A DNA stretch of 64,000 nucleotides from Camelus dromedarius. Its lineage: Eukaryota. Under the pieces are notes generated by a model. It saw nothing but the letters and a program-made list of their open reading frames with translations. It did not search any database and was not told where the DNA came from. Made by a program: the position numbers and the translations under genes. Position 1 is the first letter of the stretch, and each line of letters opens with the position of its first letter. The stretch is from positions 11,656,001 through 11,720,000 of the forward strand of contig NC_087436.1 in the NCBI RefSeq assembly GCF_036321535.1. The letters are read 5' to 3'. This document shows positions 9,772 to 59,320 of the stretch, piece after piece.

Positions 9772-9927
9772 CTTCGTTTTTGTTTGTTTTTTGGTTTTTT
9801 GTGTGTGTGGTGGGGGGTAAATTAGATTTATTTATTTACTTACTTACTTAATGGAGGTCCTAGGGATTGAACCCAGGACCTTGTGCATGCTAAGCACACA
9901 CTCTACCACTGAGGTATACCCTCCACC
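9772..9927 (-). mobile_element. tRNA-Ala-like SINE (camelid vic-1-like)
   Basis: Reverse complement reads GGGTATACCTCAGTGGTAGAG...GGGTTCAATCCC (Pol III A and B boxes) plus A-rich tail. Confidence 0.85.
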
Positions 9928-12031: not shown

Positions 12032-12405
12032 GCAATTTCCTTTCATCCTTTCTACATTTCTGTAAGAGTTAACGTAGCAGTCACATTTATGGAACAAGTC
12101 CTGGCAAATTAGGACACATTAGAGTATTTTAACATGTATTTTAAAGACAAGTTTAAATTTTCCATCCAGAATTCCTTTAAATGACATGAGAGTGCTGAGT
12201 ATGTAACTTTTCTTCCCCATGCTTCAGTATCAGATATCTTCTGAACTTTAAAAAGCCAATAAATGTCAGTAGCTTGGGTAGGAACTGTCTGGAAGAGAAG
12301 CCATTCCTGTTTATCATGCAGTTGGATTTTAGCCCAATTTAATGTGGCTGAATATGTAAGGAACCCAAGGAGGAGGTGAAGCCCTCTGTGCCGTGTTCCC
12401 TGCAG

Positions 12406-12507
12406 GTCTGTCCTCCGTGGAGGCGTACAACATCAAGTCTAACGAGTGGTTCCACGTGGCCCCGATGAACACGAGGAGGAGCAGTGTGGGCGTCGGTGTC
12501 GTTGGAG
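12406..12507 (+). CDS. KLHL2: KLHL2 coding exon (about exon 11)
   Basis: ctgcag|GT CTG...GGA G|gtacgg; 102 nt; GLSSVEAYNIKSNEWFHVAPMNTRRSSVGVGVVG(G). Confidence 0.96.
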
Positions 12508-13335: not shown

Positions 13336-13698
13336 TGGTGCTAATTCTTGATTTAACTTTTTTTTTCAATTTACTGAGGTAACTTTGATATTTAATTTGA
13401 TTTTCCAGGATGTTGTGCCGTTACCAAATAGTGTTACCCAAAGGCATAATGAGTGTCCTTTCTGTTCTGTCAGTCAGATGAACGTGTTAAATTAGTATCA
13501 CCGTATATGTCCCACAGATCTTCTTAATGTGACTGGATAACTCCACCTCTCACCATTAGATAAGATTTTAGTAGTTTGTAAAAACCAGTAACGCTTTAAA
13601 GGGAAACTCTGCTACCATAAAGGAAAAATATATTCTTTTCTGATTTGCAAAAAAACAGCTTTTTATGAACCTGACTCTCCTTGTGGTTCCGTGGCTAG

Positions 13699-13827
13699 GC
13701 CTGCTGTACGCTGTCGGGGGCTACGATGGCGCGTCGCGTCAGTGTCTCAGCACGGTGGAGTGCTACAGCGCCGCGGCCAACGAGTGGACCTACATCGCGG
13801 AGATGAGCACCCGGCGCAGCGGGGCCG
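13699..13827 (+). CDS. KLHL2: KLHL2 coding exon (about exon 12)
   Basis: ggctag|GC CTG...GCC G|gtgagt; 129 nt; [43 protein letters not shown](G). Confidence 0.96.
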
Positions 13828-14469
13828 GTGAGTGGGACCGCGGGCAGCGCCTGGAGCACGGAGATTATGGAAGACAATTAAACAGTGATTTGTTGGCATC
13901 TTTTAATGTTTTCGGAAAATATGTCCTGATTCTAGTGACACTGTTAAAATGTCTTTTGAATTATGCGTGTAGAGTAGTAGACTGCTGCATTTAAATTTCA
14001 CTTCGTAAAATTTCTGAAGTGCCGTGTTAAAGACCTCTTTCCTGTTTCATTTCATTATTTATATTGTTTGGCATTGCGTTTACTTTTTTGTTTCTAGTGC
14101 TTATTGGGGAACTTGCTTAATAATCAGCTCTTTTGAGAGCCATTTCTTACACATTTTTTGCTTTAATACTTGTTTGCTTTTATCATGAAAGCTGTTTTCA
14201 GAAGGGTTATATTAAAGGACTTCCCTCTCTGTTTTCAGCTGCATTTTATTTTTATTCTATTTGACATGCTTCTTTTTTAGAACAGTAGTTCTTATTGAGA
14301 TTCTTAAGTGGAATTCTATTCATTTTCATTTCTTAGGTTTTACACTTGAATATTGACTTACTATGAATAATCATTTCAGAAGTTTTATTTGAAAGTCATT
14401 TGAATAAACCCTAATATGTTATAAATTTCTTGTCCCCTTTACTATACTTTGGTTCTTTGTGTTTTACAG

Positions 14470-14610
14470 GTGTTGGTGTGTTAAACAACTTATTGTATGC
14501 TGTAGGGGGTCATGATGGCCCTCTAGTACGAAAAAGTGTCGAAGTGTATGATCCTGCCACCAACTCATGGAGACAGGTTGCAGATATGAACATGTGCAGG
14601 AGAAATGCAG
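14470..14610 (+). CDS. KLHL2: KLHL2 coding exon (about exon 13)
   Basis: ttacag|GT GTT...GCA G|gtattt; 141 nt; GVGVLNNLLYAVGGHDGPLVRKSVEVYDPATNSWRQVADMNMCRRNA(G). Confidence 0.96.
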
Positions 14611-17149: not shown

Positions 17150-17293
17150 GAGTTTGTGCAGTAAATGGTCTGTTATATGTCGTTGGAGGGGATGATGGTT
17201 CCTGTAACTTGGCATCGGTAGAATATTATAACCCAACGACTGATAAATGGACAGTTGTGTCATCTTGTATGAGCACAGGGAGAAGTTACGCAG
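17150..17293 (+). CDS. KLHL2: KLHL2 coding exon (about exon 14; missed by the ORF track)
   Basis: ttaaag|GA GTT...GCA G|gtaata; 144 nt; manual translation [48 protein letters not shown](G). Confidence 0.95.
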
Positions 17294-19595: not shown

Positions 19596-22551
19596 CTTCA
19601 CGTTGTCCTTGATTTTTATCTATTTAGTTGCCTGCTCACTTTTTGTGTTCTTTTATAAAATTTGCATTTGCTAACTTCATAAATCAATATTTTGAATTTG
19701 TTGCTCAAGTAACCTACAAGGCAAGTCTGTTAAATCAGTAACTGAAGGCACTGAAAACTGTTTTCCAAGAAGAAGCTACCTCAACTTCTTCAAGTTGAGC
19801 AAAGTCAAGGCAAAAGTCTCCCAAGGACTGGTGAAATTTAAAGTTATTGTGTTCTTCTATCCCTGATATGGGCAGGACACAAAATAAAACAACTAGCATG
19901 GGCCAAAAGGAAAGTCAAAGTGAAAATACCTACTGTAAAGCAACTGAGAAATAAATTACCGTTTTGATACCAAATAAAAAGAATTAAGGAAATAGGGGTG
20001 AGGTGGCCAGCTGAGGGGCTGGACGTGAGAGGGGTGAAGGGATGTGGTGGCTGCTCCTCAGGAATTTAACAGCTAGGCATGAGCTGTTGCCAGAATAGTC
20101 GATAATCAAGAGAAAAGAAGTACACCTGTAGCAAAAAGTTCTGTTTAGCTAGTGTATTCACATTTAAACATAGAATATATTTAATGCCATATATATATAT
20201 ATATAAAATTCCATTATAAGTGGAAATATAAAGAATTTAATCAAAAAGAAAAAGCCTGTGTTCACCGTATGAAAGCATGAATTTCTGCATTAGCGTAGCT
20301 CCAAGAACACCCATTCTCAGCAAACATGTTGAAGATCTAATAAACTTGGAGCACTGCTAGCTGCTTCTGACAGTGGCACCAAGAAAAATGTATCATTACT
20401 TTTCCTAATCACTTTTAAACACTAATGTTCCATGAAACTCTCCATGAATCTGTCAATTAAAGATTTATCTAAAATTTTTTGAAGCCTTTCTTAAAATACA
20501 ATCTCTTAGAGTAATCAAGTCTTAAATACTTAGCACATCAGATACCTCTTTGTCTTTTCTTTCTTTGAAGATTTGACCGCTATACCATAAAACAGCTTGC
20601 CAGGGTTTGTCAGTAGCTAGAGTCATAACTGAGATTTCAGAGCTTTGAATATACCCTCCGAATATACACTTTCAGGCATATAAAAGTGTTCCTGACTTGT
20701 CCTATTATTGTACAAAAATAGAGAGGTCAGAAGTCTTAGAAATCCTGTCAGGGACACAGCATGCAGTGTGAACAAAGTTCAAGGCTAAATCTGTGTGTAC
20801 TGTGAAGCAACTCTGCTGCCTGCCTCACTTGGCTCTGCACCTTCTTGATTGAAAGCAGAGATGGTGTTAAGGTGGATGGTGTGTCTACTTTCAGTTCCCC
20901 TCTTGTTCCTTACGGACTCTGGCAGATGATTCCTGTTTTTTTTTTTTTTTAATTATCACCCCTTGTAAGACAGCATGAGGACCCTGGTATTTATAATCTC
21001 AGCTGCTGATGAGTTATGAGACTTTTATTAGCATAAGGGTAGAATAACATAACACAGCGATGTGCTAATAAGCCTGCCTTTTCTTTCAAGTGTGGACTTG
21101 AGCAAATTGCCTCCTACTGACTTGTCTGGCTGCCAGCGTCTCATTTTGGAGAGGAGGCTACGTGGGAAAATGGAATCACACTTTGAATCAAGTTTCTGGC
21201 TTTCAGGACTCCAAGGGGAAAAGCAGTTCAATCTACAGGAATCAGATGGCTCTTGAGTTTGCCTCCCCCTCTGTCAATTGCTAGCTGTGACTTTAAACAC
21301 ATTTTTTTCATCTTTGACCCTTCGTCTTATCTAAAATGGCAACAGTAGTGTCTCTGTCACTTGCAAGGTTATTGAGGAGTTTGAACAGAATGATGTATGT
21401 TAGTGTGCTTGAAATACAGAAGACCCTCTGTAAATTACCACTATTGTCGCAGTTCACTGAACCATTTCTTCATTGTAAGGAAATAAGTGAGTTGAGCTTA
21501 TTTCTGTAGTTTTGCAGCCATATCTATTTCCGCTCAGCTCTAAATCTTTGAGATTTAAAATAACTTGACCCCTTCACATACATACACCTGCTCTGGTATA
21601 AAAAATGTATCTACTGTGGTAGGATTTTACGTCAGAATAATCAACGTAGTATTATTGAGCACTTGCTGTATTTCAGACACCGTGCAAAGGGCACATACAC
21701 GATCATATTATTGTCACAACAAACATCATTATAATACCTGTTTTACAGAGGTACTAGATAAAACTTAGAGAAGTAAGTTATCTAAGAGCAAACTGCTGAG
21801 TGACAAAGCCTGGCAGGTCTGACCCCGCAGTGCAAGCTCTTAACACTGGTTGACGGAGGGCAGCAGGTTTGGGCAGAGGGAAAAGTGGGCTGCGGCACAG
21901 TCATATCCAGGACCCCAGCCAGTATGGGCGGGTGTCTAGAGCCAGGCTGGCCAAGCAAAGGAGTGGCTTTCCTGTCATGATACTTTATAAAGAAAGTGGG
22001 TGTCAAACAAATGGGACAGACGAATGGGTAGAGGTCACTGGACCTGACGAGACACATCCTTCAAGCAGGGGCTTCCTAAAGCAGATGGTACCTGAATCGA
22101 TGGGTGGGGGAGGAGCTGCTGGCCCCTTATTGCAGGCAGGAGAGCCAGTCTTAGCATAGCCCTGAGAAACGACAGCATCCTGTATATATAAAGTGCCTTC
22201 AACTAGACCGAGTGGTACCCTCTTAAGCGAAAGCTTAAATTCGTATGTGACTCCCATCCGTGCACACTCCAGGGCGGGAGGCGGCCGAGCCCAGCTGCAG
22301 GTCTGCTGTCGCGACCAGGCTCTCCTAACCCGAAGCCTCGGCTTCCCGTCCGCAAGTGGAGGCGGGCTGCATTTGAAGTTCCCCAAGTCCCATGTACAGG
22401 TAGAGGTTATCAAGGGGTACTAGGGCTGCGGACCGGAAAGAGGGTGGTCTAAACCCGGGGCGCACCAGCAGGAAGGGTGATCTGTGAACACAGCGAGCGC
22501 GGCGACCGAAGAACCCACGCTCCACAGCCTCCCGGATCGCGCAGGAGCCTG

Positions 22552-22802
22552 GGGGCGGGGCCGAGGTTGCTAGGCGACACCTCGCGGTCTCACGTCCGTC
22601 CTCCTCTGCAGGCCGCGCGCTCCCGCCCATAGGCTCCTCGGCGCTGCTACTGGCCGGTCGCCTAGCTCTCACGATCCTCACTCCATCCGCGCAGCCAATG
22701 GCCTCGCAGCCAGTGCTCCGGTCTCTTGAGTCACACGATGCCGTCAGCCGCACGGACCAATCACAGCGCCTGGAAGGCGGGGCAGGGCACTCACAAGCCA
22801 AT
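22552..22802 (+). promoter_or_regulatory. Sterol-responsive module: SRE-like sites, three CCAAT (NF-Y) boxes, two GC (Sp1) boxes
   Basis: GC boxes 22552-22561 and 22776-22783; SRE-like CTCACTCCAT 22677-22686 and GTCACACGAT 22730-22739; CCAAT at 22695, 22757, 22798; classic SREBP/NF-Y/Sp1 layout of cholesterogenic promoters. Confidence 0.8.
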
Positions 22803-22829
22803 AACGGCGGGAGGAACTGGCTACCCCTG

Positions 22830-22915
22830 GAGCGGCTAGAGCCTAGCCGAGCTCGCGAGGCGGCGGCGGCGGCGGCGGCGGAGGCGGCAGTGGCGGCAGA
22901 CCGTGCGGCGTCTAG
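22830..22915 (+). other. MSMO1: MSMO1 non-coding exon 1 (start approximate)
   Basis: Strong donor TAG|gtgagg at 22915/22916 just downstream of the CCAAT cluster; TSS cannot be fixed from sequence. Confidence 0.75.
22859..22897 (+). repeat. GGC trinucleotide repeat (GGC)7 GGA (GGC)2 AGT (GGC)2
   Basis: Read directly. Confidence 0.95.
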
Positions 22916-23702
22916 GTGAGGGGCCCGGATAGAGGGGGGCGCGGCTAGCACTCGCGGGTGGAGGTCTGGATGGAAGTCAGGATAGAGCGTCTGGCCGCGG
23001 GCGCGGGTGCGGGTGGAAATGGGTGAAACCCCTCAGTGACGGAACGGGGCACGGCCCTCAGCCGTCCGGGAACAGTGGTCACAACACAGGGTGGCAGAGT
23101 GACCAGAGTTCTACAAAAAGAAAAAGGAAGATTTGTTTGTATGCGCGGCGGGGCGTGCGGTGGGGAAGGGCATCCGAGGAAAGTACTGAAGGATGAATAG
23201 GAGTTGAGCAGAGAACCGTACTGGCAAGGGACAATGTTTCGTGGGCAAAGACGAAGCACAGGATGGTCAGAGCCCATCGTGTAGGAATACGGAGGGTGGG
23301 AGAGAGAAGGTGAGCGAGGAGGACAGCAGAGGCCTAGGCCCTTATCCGTGGGAAGGCGCTACCTGAAACCGTGAGGTCTGGAGAAGGGGCGAGCCCTGTC
23401 TGCTGTTGAGAGGGTTGCTGGCTTCGTGTCCTAGAGGGAGGTTTAACAAGAGCACGGTTGGAGGTGCGATCCGGGCTCGGCAAAGGGCGGACACTGCTGG
23501 CGCGCTCAGAAAGCTAAACTATAAGTTTCTTGGGGAATCCACAAACGACTACATTTCTTTCGTCCGAGCATGTAGCAGGACTCCAGTGAGTCTGGTTGTG
23601 TAAGGCTGAGAAAAGGAAAAGATATTCAGTCTTTATTTCCCCTCCCCTCTCCTCTTTAATTCCGATTGTTTACTCTTGTTCAGCTGGCAGAAGTGTATCC
23701 AT

Positions 23703-23744
23703 TTCCCTCCCTTGGGTTCCCTCCCTTGGGTTCCCTCCCTTGGG
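23703..23744 (+). repeat. Tandem repeat (TTCCCTCCCTTGGG)x3
   Basis: Three identical 14-mers at 23703, 23717 and 23731. Confidence 0.95.
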
Positions 23745-24779
23745 TCTGAATGTTAATTAAATCAGTTATTTCTAAATCGGGAAAGTGTTTGAAGACTTAA
23801 CTCAGGCAGCGGAGACAGAGATCAAGAACTTCCGAGATAACTAAACAGGTGGTGTGGCCAGTTCAGTTTTTTGAGCAGGGTTGCAGGGAGCAGTGGCAGA
23901 ACTTTTGGACGTGTTGAACTTGACGTGCCTGTGAACCGTCGAAGCAGAAATTACTTTTGGATAACCAGTACCTGGAGTTTAGGAGAGAGGCCTAGAGAGA
24001 TTGTAGATATCGCTGTAGTCTTAAAACTGGGAACAGATAAGGTAACTCCAGGTAATCTGGAATAGTTAGAAAGGGATTAAAAAAGCATGCCTGGGACAAG
24101 CTCTCCAGCCTCAATTCTCGAGCCTTCCTTTCTCAGAAGCTGTACCACAGACATAGTAAATCAGAAAGTTCTGTATCCTTTCTCATCTCCTGTTTGAGTC
24201 TTTGGATCTGATGTCTCTACTCAAAACATGCCCTGTTCCCCTGTCCAACCCTACTTTACTCTTTTAATCTGGTCACCTCCCCTCTATGTTCCAGGTTTGA
24301 TTTTAGATGCATCTTTCTCTAGAAATCTTCCCTAGAACTCTCTGTTCTAGCACTTGATATTTCCACCTCTTTATTGTTCTTGTCACAAATTTTATGACAG
24401 TCTGGTTACTTCTTTGTGTTCCTCACTAGGTTTTATGTTTTGAAGTCAGGGTGAGGTCAGCAGCTAGCACAGTGGCTGCTCATAGTAGCACACATTGAAT
24501 CAGAGTCAATACGTATGAATCCTAAGAATCAGGAAAGGAGGGTATTTCAAGGAGAGAAGTATCAAATCTCACAGATTGGCTGAAAAAAAACTCCAAAAAT
24601 GTTTGTTGGATCTGGCAGCTAGGAGACCCTTAGATTAAGAGTAAATTCAGTGCATTGATTAGAATAGGAAACAGGTTGTGATGGCTGGAGAATAGATGGG
24701 CAGTGTGAAAATGAAGACAGCCTATGTGGAATACTCTTACTGTAATATTAATTTGTGCTTTGTTATTTAGGATCACAGG

Positions 24780-41577: not shown

Positions 41578-43746
41578 AGACCATGGTTTCTAACTTGTAC
41601 CTGCTTCTGTGGCCCTTTTCATTCTCCCTTTCCATCCCCCCCACCCCTATACTTCTGTGTGTGTGTGTGTTTAATAAATTTGTTTCCTCTTGAACCTCAA
41701 ACAGCAGTTTGGTAGCTGTACTTAAAATTGTGCTGTTTAGTCGTTGCTACCTGTGGGAGTTCTTTTATCATCTACCTTTCATCCCCTAATACTCCTAGAA
41801 CCTCACGGGCATCTGAACTAGCAGTGGAAGGTGATTCCATCCACGGCTTGGGGAGAGAGTGACACCTACTGTTGAAAATGATGCTAAACATTTTTAAACA
41901 ACTTGGTACATTCTAATTCTCTTTTCTTGCTGGTTATGTTTTACTGAGCACTAACTGTATGCCCTGACTTGTGCTTTTAATGCACGATCTCACTAATCTC
42001 TAGGGCAGATGCTCTTTTTCCCATTCATACATTAGGGAATTATCTGAGAGGTGAAGTTATTCCAGACCCATGGGGCCAGTCTTTTGACTTCAGAAGCGAT
42101 GGTTGTGGCCACTACATTCACACACTGCAGACTTGGATCTTCTAAGAAAATCTTAGGGGATTCTTCCCCAAATTCCCCCCTCATAAGACAGACACTTGAA
42201 AGAAAGTTCCAAGCTAACAGCCACCCAGAAAGTAGGAAGACTCATTCATGAGCTTTTGGTACAAATAGACTTTGATAAGATTTACTGGCCAGACTTCTTT
42301 TTAAATTATCTAAATTAAGTTATCTTAATTTGACAATGAGATAGACAAAAATGAATATGAAGATGAGCACAAAAACAGTACATAGATCTGCATGTACTTG
42401 AGAAAGTTACCAGATTCTTGGTTTCTTGGATTATCTATGTTGGATTTTGCTAAAGTAATAAGTTAAAAGCCTAAAGTTAATATTGTAATTTAAATGAATG
42501 GTAGAATATTCACAGAGTTAATGTCCACAATGTCATAATTAACTAGGATTTCCTTCTTTTGTATATAATCTAGCTAAAGACATTTAGACATTTGGAAAAG
42601 CTTGGGTCTGCAATATTTAAAGAAATTCTCGTACCAACTCCCGATTCCTCTGCTCTCATATAAAGCCTCGGGCTGTTAAATTCCCCCGAGCTGGAGAAAG
42701 ACGTTCAAGGTTCAAGGTGCACGAAGGGTTGTACATTTATCTCTGAGGATTTAGCTCCTAATCATTCTTCAAAAAGACTGGAATCTTTCAGCCAATATTC
42801 AGAAGAGTGATGCGCGCCCTTGGCCAAATGGATGCTCTGACAGGTGACTGTCAGATGCTGACATTCTTCCATAAAATCACCAGAGGACCGCGGTAAAACG
42901 TCCACGGCATGCTTAGAGTACCGTTGTGTTCCAGACATTGAGAGGAAGAGGATGAGGATGTGAGAGCGTAGAGCCCACTACTTCAAGTACTACCTTCAAA
43001 CTGTTGGGAAAAGAAGCAGAACTCGGGGTGGAGGGGTGGGGTGAGGATGGGTGCAGGCTCATTGCGCACTGAGACCTGGAGCCCCGGGCACCCTCCCCAG
43101 GATCTCCGCTCTCTGGAGACTGAACCCCGCACCGGGCGGGACAGGGCGGAGATGCAGCGGCTGCAACTGCAGGCTTTGCCCTTTTGCTCCCGGAACTGGT
43201 CCACGTCCTCGAAAGCCTTATTCCCCTCCTGTCCCTCTCACCTATCTCCTCATCTGTGAAATGAGGATAATAAAATTTCATAGGGAGATTGTGATGATTA
43301 AGATGCTCCAAGTGAAGTATGTGCTACTATGTTCGCTATTCTGTTAAACATTCCCACCTTCCTCTAACGAACCAGCTCTAGCCTCCCCTACCACCCCCAC
43401 CTTTCTTCCCGAGGTCTTACTCCCGCTTCAGGTGACAGCAATCTCTCACCACCCTCCCTCGCTCCCAGTTTGTATCCCTCACTTCTCTCGCTCCTCAGAC
43501 ATGCTGCCTTTTTGAATCCAAAAATTTCTGTTTTGCACTGTGTGCTTTCACTCTTCTGTACCTTTGCTTCTGCTAATCTCTCAGCCTGACACACGCGCAG
43601 TGAGGGTTAGTAATATGGCCACAGTCACGCAGGTCATGAGTGGAGAGCTGGGACTTAGCTGTATAGTCACCCCTGTAGCCTCTGTACAGCTGGTGCAATG
43701 CCTTGCAAGTGGTAGGAGTTCATGAAGTGAGTATGGGGGGGGGGCA

Positions 43747-48840: not shown

Positions 48841-51800
48841 CGTGCTGTGCAGCTGTGTTATGTTTGGAGTTACCACTGTAGATTCCTGAGCAAGTTAACT
48901 CTCATCATAAATAAGGATCTTATTTACTTACAAGGTTGATTAATTTATATGTTTTTAAAATTTATGCGATGGCCAGCACCTCATAGCCCAAGAAAAACCA
49001 GACATCCACTGTGATATTTGCCTGATGAGAGCACGGCATTTGATTTTTATTTTGGTAACATCATTCCCAAATGTGGGTATATAATGTTGGTAGAAAAATT
49101 AAGGCCTATAAAATAACACCACTACCACATTTTATGGTTGTTAAAGACTTATCACATTTTATTGTTGGTAAAGGCACAGAAACAATTTCTTCAGAGCCAG
49201 AGAGCTGAACACTGAAATTCAATTTACTCTTGGCTCCGAGTAACATGTTAAGACTCTAGATTTATAGCATGCTTTCCTAAAATACAATCAGCTCAGATCC
49301 AAAAGATTAAAGAAGCATTTCTAAAATAGATCTTTGAATTAATACTATTTCTCTTTGACCCCATGGATCCTTGCTTTGGAATTTATCCTCCATGAAATCA
49401 AGTGGCATGTCTGTAAACTGTGTGTAATGAAATAAGGTCATTGTGAAAGTCACGTTGGGAAATGCAGGGGAAATACTTTGTACATGTTATGGTCTTGATT
49501 TGTTGTTATGCTATGGAGCATCATGAAAAAGATAGTGACTCCTCAGTTTGATTTAGGACTGCTCTTCCAGGAGGAAGGCGCATCTCCCACACGTATCACT
49601 CCAAAGCAGATGAAGTTCATCAAGTTCCTCAGACCCTTGACTAGGGATGTTACCAGATTTTCAACTGACTTGCTTTGTTTGCTTTTTTTCTTCCCCTCTT
49701 ATTTTCCCCTCCTCTCCCTCCTCTCTCTCTTCTACTGTTTCTCTCTCTCTCTTGCTCAGTCTCCACCCTCCTGTTCTTCCTGTTTTGCACAAACTCCAAC
49801 TAAGTTCTCAGCTAGACTCTATCCCTTTCACCATGGGATTCCCTTGAGAGAGACAATACAGAAAGAGACAGTCTCATCCATGAGAAGGCATGACGGGCCG
49901 ACAGGACCTCGGGCAGCAACCCCTGTAGACTCCAGGCCCCTCACGTCCTGGTAGTGGAGTGGACTGCAGTCTGCCCCACTCTCCCTCTCTGGATGCAGAC
50001 CCCTGGGAGAAACCAGGCAACCAAGTGGGGAGCACACCGAACCGTCTTCTTCATTAACTTGGAGCAAGAATCCACATGTAAGTAACTTTTCAACAAAAAG
50101 GTCAACACCAGTCTTGTGCTTGGAGCATCAGAGAATCCCAATTTAACTTCAAAGACTTTGATCAGCCAACACTTAGGTGCACAACAGCCGTGATTATGTG
50201 ATGGTACCGTGTCAGAGTCATAGTTGCCCGTGAATTGTATCTGAACATCCACTTGATGAATATGCTGTGTGTTTTTCTTTTTTTTTTTTTCACAAATAAT
50301 GGTATGACTGACCGCTCACCCACCTGCAGGCTGATGTAAGCTGTCAGTCCTTCAGAGGAGTTGGGTTTGTTGTCATTCACAAAGCTTCTTTGAAATTAAG
50401 GGTGCAGTCCTGGTGATAAGGAAGAGATTTGCTTGTTTTTCCTCTCTGTACAGGAGTGATCCGTCAGCCTCAGTTTCAACCTCATTGGCACCTTGGTCAG
50501 TCCATCTCGAAGCAGAGGCTTCCAAAATGTTGGTCAAGCCCAGAGACACTTTAACACATATGTGTGGACACAACATATGTTTATGTACATTTACAATTTT
50601 GAGCTTGCAGGGAAGTGGGCAACTTTCACAAATAAGAGCCTGTTTCATTTTGACTTCTTGTACGTTATATAAAACAAAGCTGCGAACAGCTTTCTTTCTT
50701 GGACATTTGAGATTTTTAAAAGGTTCAAAGACATTACGGATTGAAGAGTAACGCAGCGGATGAGCACGGTTATCGTTCATCGCGAGGGATTTCAGTACTT
50801 CTTTGTGCACCTACATAATGCTTACCTTTCCCGAGGCCCAGGAAGTTCACGTCCTACGAAGTTGTCATGCGTTGTTTGTGTCAATGACCTTCCAGCAGCT
50901 GCAGAGAAACCCAGTCGTTCTTCCAGGTGTTCATCTGATGGAAATTGGCAATTTGATTTCCATCTCTGTAATTTGTTTTCCAAAGGGAAGGACATAAGAA
51001 AAAAACTCCACTTTTCTCTTCTGAATATTGTATTTGTGATGTTGTAGATTTATACAAACAATTATAACATAGACAGCAATAGGAATGACACTGAATAACT
51101 ACACAGATAAAACGAGAAAACTGGCAAATGACTTGTCACATGCAAGCAACTTGGTAAATGTGGCTGATGAGTCAAGAGGAGGCTGGAGGCATCCTCCCCC
51201 CACCCCGAGGACAGGGTCCTGCGGAGAACGTAGGAACCCAGGAGCTTGCTGAGTGCACAGAACATTAAAGGCGTGGGCATAAGTCTGAGCCGAAGTTAGA
51301 AGGGAGTTGGCCGCAGATGGAGTAGTTAGTTCACTCACCCTCCAGCATCCTGAGGCCCTGCGGCCGTGACTCACTGTGCTGGGCCCCGGAGGCCAACACG
51401 CAAGTCAGGCCAGTCTCGGCTCCCAGCGGGAGGCAGTGGACACAGGACTCCGAATCCTGGGAGCTGCAAACGGAGCAGAGAGGTGATACTTGACACCAAG
51501 AGCTTGGATGAGGTCACCCGCACAGAGCACGTGAAGAGGGAGCCAGGCAAGCTCGGCGGATGTTGTCTGGTTGGCTGGGGAGAACCCACAGAGCAGAAGT
51601 TGAGTGGGAGAGGGAATGAGAAAATTGTGAGAAAGCTGGATCATAACTAACGGGGTCAGTTTTTCAGGTTTTTTCCAGGAGACAGAAGAGGATGGACCAA
51701 AGGGAAATTCAAAGAGAGATAGGAGCTGGCAGTTCAGGAGGAAGGAAGCCTGCCTGGTGGGGGAGTGGGGACAGGAGGGGGTCTGGGGATTAAGGCTGGC

Positions 51801-52525: not shown

Positions 52526-53983
52526 GGGTTACTGGGGTGGCCACTGGGATACGGAGAAACTGGTACAGGGTAGAGCTGTAGAAAAACTGTGACAAACCCT
52601 TGGGACCATGTTTAGTTTGAGTTGGTAAGTAGATATTCAGGCTGTGATATTTGTGGATGGAGCACGTGCATCGGATTCAAGCTGCGTGTCAGGGTGCATT
52701 TGGCTGTCGCCTGTCTGCCGTGGTCCACGTCCGCTCTCTCAGCTGACAAAATGGGAATAGGTAGTAGGGGGTTAACGGGAAAGACCAATTAACGAAGAGG
52801 ATCATAAAAAATGAAGCATGCAAGCACACTTTAAATAATTTATTTAAACCTAAGACATAAGTATACATTCATCCATTGGTTGGTGGTTGGTGGTTGGAAC
52901 GAGCCCGTCTCACCACACTGTTTTCTACCCTTTGAGTCTCTTTAAAGTGACAGGGTTTTGAACAAACCTAAGAGCAGACTGTTTAGGGGTTTTTCTCTCT
53001 TCCTCAGTCCTTCACTGTTTTCTCACTCATACCTAATCCCAATTTAACAATCCAGCTGTTTCTAAAGCATTCAACTTTTTCCTATTCTTGTACTTATCAG
53101 TTTACTTTCTTAAAAAATTAATTACATAACTAAAGTAAAAGTGGCATGGACATTTTGTGACACACCTGACTGACTCTTGGTGTGTGCACCCAACCCAGCG
53201 ATGAGAGAAATGAGAAATGGGAGAAAAGGGGAAAATGGGGGAGCTGTGAGACCAGTTGCAGCCCCGCCAGGTGCCAGGCTCCCTCCTAACTGGGCACTTC
53301 TCAGCGAGGACAGGGAGATAGTTGAGCAGAGGACTGTCAGAGAATGTCCTCCTTGCTCACCGGAAATGCCCGCATTGGTGCTGGGAGTTCAGAGGAAGAA
53401 GGAGGGATTCTGAAGCCGGCGCATCTGGGTGGGGCTGCGGTGCTGGTAAGAGGTACCACGGTTGGCGTGTGTCCCAGCAGGGAGCCAACGGGAGCAGAAG
53501 GCTTCGTTCATGGAGCACGTCTCTTGTGCCCGCCTCCTTGCAGGCTTTAGTTCATGGAAGGCTTCTCGTGTCCCTCATTTTCGAGTGAGCAACTTGAAAC
53601 AACTTCATTGAACAACTTCTGGAAGCCAGTAGACCTGGGATTAGAACGCTGTTCTGTCAAACCTCAGTATCAGTCTCTGGAACCAGTGCTCCTCAATCTT
53701 ATTTGGCATCAGAATCACCAGGAGAGGATGGGGGGTGGGGAGAGCTTATTCAAAGGCAGATTTCCAAGCCCCAGCCCCAGAAAACTGGATTCAACTGGTC
53801 TGGAATGCGGCCATGCTCACCAAGTGATTCTGATGCAGAAGGTTCCGGAACACTGAAGGGCAGTACCACACTGCCTCTCTGGGGAAGCCCAGAGAAGGGC
53901 CAGCCAGAGAGGGGCGCTGCTGAGTGAGGAATGGGGACTGGAGAGGGAAGAGTGGTTTGCTGGAGCCAATTCATAACAATTTG

Positions 53984-55417: not shown

Positions 55418-58149
55418 TTATCACCTAAATTTGGTAGGTACATCCCATCACTTCTGCCAAATTACCTTCACTAGAAGCGAGTCACTAAGTCCTGTGGATG
55501 CTCAAGCAGAAGGGAAGTAAGCTCCCCCGTGAAAGGGAGGAGTGTAAAGAATTTGCATAAGGGTGTGCTGCCACCTATCTCTTCTCAAGCTGTGTCTGGT
55601 GACGTCACATCGGCCATTTGAAATCAGCCACGGTGGGAATATTTACCCTGTGGAAATCAGCAAACACTCTAAACCCGGTTTTATCCCCCATGGAGAGCTG
55701 AGTGTCAGACATTTACCATCAAATCACTGGACAGATAGATATAAAGTGGTAATGTCTACAGCACTTTTGTGGAGTAGATGAGTTTCAGACAGGACTTTGG
55801 AAGGAGGGAATCAAAGGTTTGGGAGATAGGAAGAGGTAGCTTCTGAATCTGAAAAGTAGTAGGGGTGATGCGGGAAGTGGAGGTTAAGGGAGCTTCAGTT
55901 GGTCCTTATGGATGCTCAGAAGTGAGATGAGCAACAGAACTCTCTCTTTTCTGTGTGCATGCACATGCATGATTTAAAATGTGGGTGCACGCTACGTTTA
56001 ACTATGGGTGCACAGAGTCCAATGCATTAGACAATCAGTATGCAAGATTTCCTACCCAGGAATCAGGATGGGTATGTAACCGTTCACATAATTGCCTCGG
56101 AAGCCACAAACAAATGACATAGGCTGCAGTGAAGCTGACCTACAGTAAAATCACCCAGAAGTTCAAAGACCTAGTTTTAACTCCTCTGAACTGATTCCTT
56201 GGTGTGTGCGGTGTGCCCGCGAGTAACTGACAGTCTCAATCATCTATCAGGTATGCAAGAGCATCTCTCAAAAAGAAAACTTCCAGAATCATAGTATTTT
56301 AGATTTAAAAAGACTTTGGAAATCACATGGGACAGTATTTCTCAAAGTATGTTTGTCAGTCAAACATCAAAATCTGAGCTACCTGGAGTTCTTGTTAAAA
56401 CCTGGAACCTTGTTAATACCTGAACCCCCGCCTCAGATCTACTGCATCGGTCAGGGCTTGGGAATCTGCACATTTTATTAATTCTCTAGATGATTGTGCT
56501 GCACTTGAATGAATCCAGATCTTCCATTTTGTAGATAAGGAAAACCAGTTTCTAAGATTACAAAAGACTCCCCTCAAATGAGACCACATTGCTGGGAGGA
56601 TTCCACCCATTTACAAAAAAGTAAAAAACAAAAACAAAAACAATCCATAAAATTGAGATTTGGGACAAAATAGAAAACACACCCTTTATCTGAAGAGAAG
56701 CTTAAGGGCAACACAGGATTTTACTGACTCATATGATGTTTACGTGTGTTCTTACCAGTATGTGACCCACCTAGCCACAAATCAGTGTGGTTACCTTAAA
56801 TTGCTAACATGAAACTCTTGACCTTCCCCTTCTGAAGTTATGGTTTTGGCTACTCTGTTTTCTTTTTCAAGGTTTCCAAGGTTGCTCTTTTGGGCATGAT
56901 TTTAGAAATCTAATTATAGCTTTGGTTGCAAACTTCTGGGGACCATGTAATCAAACTGAGACTAACCATAGAGGAAAATATACAAGGTTCTTGCATTGTC
57001 ATTCCTGCACTGAAAAGGAAAACGGCTGGGTGCAAATTCAACTGAGTGGCATGTCTTTGTAGCGGCAGCTTTCCCCCCAAAATCTCCCAAAAAAGATCTA
57101 TGCTGCTGTGGGAAACAGAGGAGTTTGAAACCAGTCTCTCTAGCAGCATTTTTTTCTTTTTTTGAGCCAATAAAATCATTTATACTTTCTCCAGGAGAAA
57201 GTTTTTATTCAGTGCACTGCATGTTAGGCATGTGGAGAAAGAGTGAATTAAGAAAAAAACTATGTCTAACATGAAAAAATTATCCACATGATGTCCAGTT
57301 TCTCTGCTTGGTTGAAATGGATTATTTATTTAGATTTGTACTATTTTTGAATCCAAATGGCAACCTCTTCAGAATAACATCTGCTCCAGATTTCTTCCTG
57401 GACTACAAATCCTGTGTAAAGGATGGGTATTTAATGCTGTAAATGATTTTATATTTTTGCAATAACTTTGGGAGGGGAACCCAGATACTATCTCCCACAA
57501 TCAGAGTTTTCTTTCTATAACAGGATTTGATCTTTCATTTATTTTTTCTTGGAAGAAGTTTCTCCAGCCCCAATCCAGCCTTCAGTTGGACTGCAGTCCA
57601 ACATCTTAGTTACAACCAGGTAAGAGACCATGAGCTCAAATCACCCAGATAAGCTGCTCTGGAAAGATTTAACCTTAATACCAGACTAAATCCTGTGTGC
57701 AGCTCTCCCAGCTGTACTGTTTCCCCCACAGGAGTAACAGAGGGGGTTGGCAAAGGCACTGGCACATGACATTGTCTTTCCTGTGCTTCCCCCCCACCCC
57801 GTTAGAATCCAGGAATATGATTAAATACAGTTAAAGACAGTATCTGCGAATGGATAGAATGCATTTTTAGTTTCTTAAACCTCTAAATCACAGGGCACAA
57901 TGTTCTGTTTTCCAGGCAGAACTTGCAATGAATGAACATCCAACCCGTGGGTTTGTGTTTGGACTATCAATACAGTTATTAAAGACACATCACGGGGAGA
58001 AGGCAAGTGGCTGCCAATACTTCCTTTGTGTTTCTTTTTTTCTGGAATATTCTCTAATTTTTGGCGCATCAAGATGGAAACCTGGTCGGCTTGGCATGGA
58101 TGGCAGTTTAAAAGGCTGCACTCCCAATCCCAGAGTGTTTTTTTCCCCA

Positions 58150-59320
58150 CGCAGCGTCACGGGTCTCTCAATGACAGCAGCGTGCCCACACCCGACCTTA
58201 GCTGTCATCCCACCTGGGTCGTCCCGGCGCCATTTGGCTCTGACGTGGCCCCGAGCCCGCAAATCGCGCAGCAGCCCCCGGTTATCCGCGAATCCGGCTG
58301 GCGGAGCCGCCCTCCCGGCCCCGCCCGCCCGGGGCCCCGCCCGGCTCCTCGCCGCCTCCCCAGCGTCCCGCGCTCGGCGGCCGTGCGTCTTGCGCTCCGC
58401 TCCGCTCCGCTCCGGCGTCGCGCTCCCGACTCCTCGCTCTGCTCCTCGCTCCCGGCCGCCGGGAGGCGAGGCGAGGGGACCCGCCGGCCGTGCGCCCCGA
58501 GGCGCCGGGCACACGGGAGGCCGCGCGGAGACGCGGGGCGCGATGGCGGGGCGAGGGGGCCGCGCGCTGCTGGCGCTGTGCGGGGCGCTGGCCGCCTGCG
58601 CGTGGCTGCTGGGCGCCGAGGCCCGGGGGGCCGCGGGGAGCGCGGCGGGCGCGAGGCGGCGCCGGCGGCCGCAGGAGGACGGCATCCCTTTCGAGTACCA
58701 CCGCTACCCGGAGCTGCGCGAGGCGCTGGTGTCCGTGTGGCTGCAGTGCGCCGCCGTCAGCAGGATCTACACGGTGGGGCGCAGCTTCGAGGGCCGCGAG
58801 CTGCTGGTGCTCGAGCTGTCCGACAACCCCGGCGTCCACGAGCCGGGTAAGGGCGCCGCGCGGGGTGGGCTGGCGCTGGGGGAGGAGGGAGAGGGGGCCC
58901 GTGGCGCCTTCTGCGCCGGGGCGCCTGGGCTGGAAGGTGGGTCGTGGAGGGAGGGTTGGGGATGGGGCTTGCCGGCTCCTAGTCTCTGCCGTCCGCCCTC
59001 CCCAGCCCCGAGGACACCCGTGGGTGGGTGGGGGGAGCACAGGCCCGAGGGGCTGCGGCGGGTGGAGGTACGGGCGCAGAGTCGCTGTCACCCCCACTTC
59101 GCAGCACCGGAGACCGCAGGGAATAACTGAGAGGCCTCAGGGAGGAGGTCGACCTTCCTTGCAAACGGGAGTAGAAGGATAAGGTGCAGAAGGCGGGGAC
59201 TCAGAGAAAATGAGTAGAAGTTTCCTAATTTCCAGAGGACCCAGTAATTGTACTGCGTGCTGGGGGCTCTGCCTACCCATCTCTACCTGTATGTGCGCAT
59301 TCGGTACACGCGCTGCTGGA
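58150..59320. promoter_or_regulatory. CpG island / TATA-less CPE promoter
   Basis: Very GC/CpG-rich; GC boxes near 58318-58342; TGACGTGG 58241-58248; (GCTCC)4 58394-58413. Confidence 0.9.
58543..58846 (+). CDS. CPE: Carboxypeptidase E exon 1 (signal peptide, pro-peptide with penta-Arg, start of M14 domain)
   Basis: gcgATGG Kozak; [27 protein letters not shown]...[32 protein letters not shown]...SDNPGVHEP(G)|gtaagg; intron 1 runs past the window end. Confidence 0.97.

Follow-up and report, generated by a model that had tools for sequence, protein, structure and literature searches.

Meiotic repair of heteroduplex DNA favors G/C alleles in short tracts, and this GC-biased gene conversion (gBGC) raises the fixation of such alleles whatever their effect on fitness. 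Previous work in humans describes single exons that are accelerated and show a bias toward weak-to-strong (A/T-to-G/C) substitutions (Berglund et al. 2009, PMC2631073). The bias extends into the flanking introns, at 60:11 within 100 bp of the top 20 human exons, and fades with distance (PMC2631073). In rodents the class is common, with 29,845 single-exon episodes reported in about 70,000 exons (2025, PMC12290510). The rodent episodes have an equilibrium GC3 near 94%, and a minority include a non-synonymous weak-to-strong change (2,159 of 7,572; PMC12290510). Finally, PRDM9-independent hotspots have been described at hypomethylated CpG islands (Joseph et al. 2024, PMC11161765).

Here, we analyzed a window of 64,000 nucleotides from the dromedary genome (Camelus dromedarius, NC_087436.1, positions 11,656,001 to 11,720,000) that includes exon 12 of KLHL2. 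On the tests run, this exon belongs to the known class of single-exon gBGC events. A local gBGC footprint laid down on the camelid branch over exon 12, and probably over exon 11, is the likely explanation of our findings, and the mechanism put forward in the original prediction for this locus is largely right. Exon 12 offers a clean and nearly saturated case of how a neutral process can remodel a conserved gene.

How does this exon compare with the systems described so far? Like the human exons of PMC2631073, it shows clustered A/T-to-G/C changes in one exon with spill into the introns, a pattern that can mimic positive selection; such spill is the published signature of these episodes. Unlike those exons, it belongs to another lineage, and its footprint is nearly saturated and ends 20-40 nt from the exon rather than over kilobases. 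The rodent episodes of PMC12290510 resemble it in being confined to single exons, in a near-equilibrium GC3, and in one non-synonymous weak-to-strong change; they were, however, read from DNA trees with short branches, whereas the camelid branch is long, its synonymous changes are inferred, and a neighboring exon is seemingly affected. The hotspots of PMC11161765 share with exon 12 a GC- and CpG-rich composition with little CpG decay, as expected under long gBGC together with hypomethylation. Those hotspots are promoter-like, however, whereas the exon 12 block covers 190 bp at an internal exon near the 3′ end. The main text and examined supplements of that paper yielded no camelid names. A literature search on KLHL2, gBGC, and camel, with subscription journals and per-exon gBGC tables outside its scope, found nothing on this exon.

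The KLHL2 model comprises 15 exons encoding 593 residues, with four differences from buffalo KLHL2, and sequence identity, exon structure, and gene order in the window all identify the gene as the KLHL2 orthologue. Genes with the Pfam domains FA_hydroxylase and Peptidase_M14, which we take to be MSMO1 and CPE, lie downstream. Exon 12 occupies positions 13699-13827 of the window (forward strand, as are all exons, flanks, and codons given below), is 129 nt long with AG/GT ends, and encodes part of a Kelch repeat (Pfam Kelch_1). Its peptide is that of KLHL2 in Camelus ferus, C. dromedarius, and Vicugna pacos (P0128, P0132) and differs from that of all other mammals compared. DNA and peptide searches each found one KLHL2 copy of exon 12 in the genome; KLHL3 lies on C3.

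A two-changepoint fit delimits a GC/CpG block of 192 bp centered on exon 12 (13670-13861), with 23 CpG and a GC content of 0.69 within and 0.32 outside, so that the predicted sharp spike with spill into both introns is real. The block is local and sub-kilobase against an ordinary background, and the intron interiors on its two sides have GC contents of 0.37 and 0.30. It has the highest CpG content among 1696 windows of 192 bp in 170 kb of sequence, a background in which three promoter islands were masked. Within the exon, which holds 18 CpG, G or C fills 39 of 43 third codon positions (GC3 0.91, versus about 47% in other exons). The counts given in the original prediction for this exon and for the AT-rich control exons 13 (14470-14610; 18/47) and 14 (17150-17293; 15/48) were exactly reproduced. 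Restricting the comparison to synonymous third positions leaves 37 of 41 with G or C in exon 12 versus 225 of 482 in 12 other KLHL2 exons, a set from which exons 1 and 11 were left out (Fisher p 3e-8), and fourfold sites give 22/24 versus 111/229 (p 3e-5).

CpG dinucleotides are close to their expected frequency in the block, with an observed/expected ratio (o/e) of 1.05 over 13675-13860 (186 bp). In exon 12, 10 of 12 sites preceding a G hold C, and NCG is used in 5 of 5 cases, compared with 17/85 and 9/41 summed over exons 2-10, 13, and 14. The bias reaches beyond CpG, since C also fills 12 of 14 pyrimidine third positions that are not followed by G. The usual rule for a CpG island asks for at least 200 bp, GC above 0.5, and o/e above 0.6, and a stricter version for 500 bp. 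By the loose rule the exon 12 block is borderline (the 200-bp segment at 13661 has a GC content of 0.665 and 23 CpG), and by the strict rule it fails on length.

To place the change on a branch, we compared the intron flanks with open reading frames (ORFs) from other mammals, found by a protein search with the read-through frame, in which the translation continues from exon 12 into both introns. (A metagenome scan for orthologous DNA returned 21 loci, the best of them 80% identical in protein and none a mammalian orthologue.) The read-through ORFs fall into three types by their exon peptide: six of cattle/whale type (the P0236 group), several of human/carnivore type, and several of bat type. 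Their lineages were inferred from that peptide by comparison with named proteins, and the ORFs are interrelated rather than independent tests. Differences were counted as the fewest base changes behind the codons, with ties broken against the gBGC reading and third positions invisible. The counts omit the downstream flanks of P0357 and P0243, which have a different donor region, and bat-type ORFs were cut at 11 codons at a change of frame.

The flanks of these ORFs, including those of cattle/whale type, are well conserved among themselves and AT-rich right up to both splice sites. Against P0236, the camelid sequence shows at least 12 weak-to-strong and at most one strong-to-weak difference over 24 flank codons (binomial p 0.0017). 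Both flanks were usable in 13 of the 17 ORFs, which gave 10-15 weak-to-strong versus 1-3 strong-to-weak differences; the four with the upstream flank only gave 3:1, 2:0, 4:2, and 3:2, which is not significant. Ten of the 12 weak-to-strong changes relative to P0236 show up again in comparison with at least one other ORF type and therefore fall on the camelid side, and two are unassignable. The camelid-side flank changes thus amount to about 10 from A/T to G/C and 0-1 in reverse. Three of the A/T-to-G/C differences from the read-through ORFs, plus one ambiguous difference, lie in the acceptor-side flank (13677-13698). About seven lie in the donor-side flank (13828-13864), together with a 1-nt deletion near 13833-13838. 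The alignment of the downstream flank carries one 1-nt gap, and every near-best placement of it keeps 7-10 versus 0-1. Beyond about 13865, the camelid sequence again matches the longest read-through ORF.

Control flanks behave differently. Nine flanks of other exons gave a balanced 14:21 (Fisher p 0.0012), and the three cetartiodactyl ones among them 4:6 (p 0.019); these controls were hand-picked, one per flank, as 9 of 36 rows, and the exon 10 acceptor row (P0082) was dropped as an artefact. The lineage-specific weak-to-strong burst that had been predicted to spill into both introns is therefore borne out, and, judged from this sequence comparison, the GC spill into the exon 12 introns is a camelid-branch event. 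Eight of the ten camelid-side flank changes create no CpG, so CpG protection alone is insufficient to account for them.

Is exon 12 unique within the gene? The original contrast used downstream exons only. The extremeness of exon 12 survives a wider comparison, but its standing as the sole GC-rich exon does not, because exons 11 (GC3 28/34) and 8 (38/50) are GC-rich too, and both also have GC-rich near flanks. Together with the adjoining acceptor flank, exon 11 (12406-12507; CpG o/e 1.03) makes a further GC peak at 12381-12507 that is weaker than the one at exon 12. In a comparison of 13 internal exons, GC3 correlates with the GC content of the 40 intron bases closest to the exon (rho 0.80, p 0.001), and no such relation is seen with intron bases 100-400 away (rho 0.23, p 0.44). 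The exon 11 and exon 12 peaks are centered on the exons, and the 1.1-kb intron that separates them has a GC content of 0.37. GC3 that tracks near but not far flanks, and peaks centered on exons, are not predicted from one hotspot. The acceptor flank of exon 11 differs from the yak and narwhal read-throughs by 5:2 each, mainly from A/T to G/C, although these differences are not polarized; the flanks of exons 4 and 8 are without a weak-to-strong skew (3:4 and 1:2). The episode probably also hit exon 11.

The protein changes tell a different story from the one first proposed, in which the burst had fixed three amino-acid replacements in a very conserved adaptor. The human KLHL2 residues given in that proposal are correct (P0135, P0136; PDB 2xn4), but two of the three changes are older. 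Ser470 (Asn in human; 13767-13769) and Ala473 (Thr in human; 13776-13778) occur together in 10 of 10 non-camelid cetartiodactyl proteins (ruminants, hippo, and whales, with no pig in the sample). N470S is also found in two lemurs, two hystricomorph rodents, and pangolin, and T473A in horse, most rodents, and lemurs. Both changes predate the camelid burst because ORFs with the same peptide keep AT-rich, unshifted flanks. Only Ala472 (13773-13775; Thr in human, cattle, and whales) is a camelid-specific residue of exon 12, and it is so within cetartiodactyls, since pangolin, star-nosed mole, Myotis, and an opossum carry T472A as well. KLHL3 also has Ala at the matching position. This change is common to the Camelus and Vicugna proteins and fixed in three or four camelid proteins. 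At least one change therefore predates the split of Old and New World camelids.

The description of the protein as very conserved also fails at this spot. Among 59 mammalian proteins, no other exon from 4 to 14 varies as much as exon 12, which has 14 variants in 43 codons compared with 11 in 47 in exon 13. These variants are concentrated in a turn between two strands that varies throughout vertebrates. The equivalent turn of exon 13 (residues 519-522) is just as variable among mammals, and T519A in that AT-rich exon is fixed in the same cetartiodactyl group, in parallel with N470S and T473A. A fold model with a mean pLDDT of 69.5 was used for secondary structure alone; by Kelch topology, the 470-473 turn presumably faces away from the substrate. 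T472A is a tolerated change in a hypervariable turn, and its effect on the protein is probably nil.

The WNK4 contacts of the KLHL3 Kelch domain have been published, together with the Kelch-WNK4 complexes of KLHL2 and KLHL3 (PDB 4CHB/4CH9; Schumacher et al. 2014, PMC4019986). The camelid gene encodes the same protein, KLHL2, and all 11 KLHL2 equivalents of those contacts are unchanged, including Y455 and G457, which lie in exon 12. Residues 470-473 fall outside this set and are neither among the contacts named nor among the disease mutations given in that account (PMC4019986). The protein and adaptation side of the original prediction mostly does not hold up. The exon carries a caution for scans of desert adaptation in camels, in that a lineage-specific change in the WNK pathway needs no adaptive story.

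We propose that meiotic breaks clustered on or beside exon 12, with exon 11 probably affected too, and that they were repaired through short conversion tracts favoring G/C alleles in heterozygotes. New A/T-to-G/C mutations would then have been driven to fixation at nearly every free site over about 190 bp. The sites hit would be the third codon positions, a stretch of 20-40 nt in the intron on either side, and a single codon that tolerates change (T472A), with the remaining protein held unchanged by purifying selection. We infer that the synonymous sites of exon 12 moved on the same branch as the flanks and that recombination was the cause of the burst. A single short-lived hotspot would hardly yield near-saturation together with undecayed CpGs, which suggests a long or repeated process. 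The fourfold sites and GC3 of exon 12 are close to the 94% equilibrium estimated for the rodent single-exon episodes (PMC12290510).

Could the block exist without recombination drive? Germline hypomethylation, or selection for a regulatory element such as an internal promoter, an enhancer, or a nucleosome or splicing signal, could maintain a small CpG island within the exon. This would fit the CpG o/e and the C retained before G in exon 12, a width of about one nucleosome, and peaks that coincide with exons 11 and 12 but not with the intron separating them. We nevertheless consider this account unlikely, since most of the flank changes make no CpG and lower CpG decay slows loss but by itself yields no burst of new G/C. 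Moreover, T has been replaced in the polypyrimidine tract, which would not be expected under splicing selection. A hypomethylated micro-island is compatible with gBGC, and the two can coexist. It is improbable that exon 12 is GC3-rich in all cetartiodactyls or mammals and that only its flanks changed in camelids. The GC3 of the paralogous KLHL3 exon (31/43) fits such an old GC-rich exon, as do the 8 of 14 unambiguous exon 12 variants of weak-to-strong types in the 59 mammalian proteins. However, the flanks are AT-rich to both splice sites in all ORF types, and the same Thr-to-Ala changes in the AT-rich turn of exon 13 indicate that such variants need no GC drive.

Explanations that look to the protein or to another gene fare worse. 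Positive selection on camelid KLHL2 for salt and water handling through WNK turnover could draw on the fixation of T472A and on the binding of the WNK4 degron by KLHL2 as by KLHL3 (PMC4019986). It would have to act, however, through one conservative change to the KLHL3 residue in a turn that varies across vertebrates, with every WNK contact equivalent conserved, and selection on the protein leaves the synonymous and intronic changes unexplained; we regard it as very improbable. We give the least credence of all to ectopic conversion with KLHL3, or a GC-rich retrocopy of KLHL2, as the donor. Although the matching KLHL3 exon is GC-rich and identical at 96 of 129 nt, a cDNA donor would leave the introns unchanged, and the genome holds a single KLHL2 copy of exon 12. 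Conversion from KLHL3 in particular is largely refuted: the two genes match at only 6 of the 19 fourfold sites that can be compared, the diagnostic residues are KLHL2-type, as had been argued from the outset, and the flanks are unrelated.

Beyond a camelid-branch gBGC footprint, might ordinary internal exons of camelids have become micro CpG islands that sustain themselves and serve as long-lived recombination hotspots independent of PRDM9? We hold this to be doubtful. It would mean that KLHL2 exons 11 and 12 each bear a footprint that is one nucleosome wide, saturated, and still active, that it started from the GC of the exon itself, and that it was sustained over the whole camelid radiation, possibly with PRDM9 control weak or lost. 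As to persistence among relatives, T472A occurs in both Camelus and Vicugna, and the flanks of other cetartiodactyl-type ORFs show no burst. If both exon-centered peaks proved unmethylated and still recombining, they would show the origin of CpG islands and stable hotspots within coding exons.

Repeated searches of this assembly found no PRDM9 orthologue, and a search for the GAS family, which usually adjoins PRDM9, gave no match. Two similar PRDM9-like fragments, at 65.75 Mb of C9 (L063:2215-2491) and 14.30 Mb of C26 (L064:1822-2638), are decayed, being 40-57% identical in protein and carrying frame changes and stops. KRAB-SSXRD-SET proteins with three catalytic tyrosines are tabulated for three Camelus species and alpaca in PMC5519329, where the tyrosine column does not record zinc fingers. 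The missing PRDM9 is probably an assembly gap or a search miss rather than a loss, because the GAS family is also unfound and the tabulated RefSeq proteins cover four camelids.

The intron flanks of exon 12 (13659-13698 and 13828-13885) are unusually well conserved among non-camelid mammals. They may carry splicing signals that were overridden by the camelid burst.

Several other features of the surrounding landscape are worth recording. Narrow non-exonic GC/CpG bumps occur in KLHL2 introns about 68.8, 67.9, and 23.1 kb before the start of the window and, within it, at 43000-43250, 51300-51600, and 53200-53600. These bumps hold 10-14 CpG per 192 bp and are weaker than the exon 12 block. Two promoter-type CpG islands lie at the FA_hydroxylase and Peptidase_M14 genes (22000-24000 and 58000-59200), the former with three coding stretches of ordinary GC3 (39/85, 17/50, and 28/64). 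A short tRNA-like interspersed repeat, presumably the camelid Vic SINE, is present in about seven copies that are 60-90% similar, at 9822, 26904, 36927, 38343, 41464, 43747, and 61871.

KLHL2 itself has two introns that start with GC instead of GT, one after exon 5 (upstream of the window) and one after exon 10 (12031). A segment of at least 3 kb that includes KLHL2 exon 2, also upstream of the window (G000:C1:11573500-11576500; L031:3500-6500), is dispersed at no fewer than about 39 other places, a lower bound from the 40 of 21,392 candidates that were scored. The copies are 79-85% identical and are spread over many chromosomes and small contigs, with 11 of them open peptide matches, and together they resemble a family of partial gene copies that is old in camelids.
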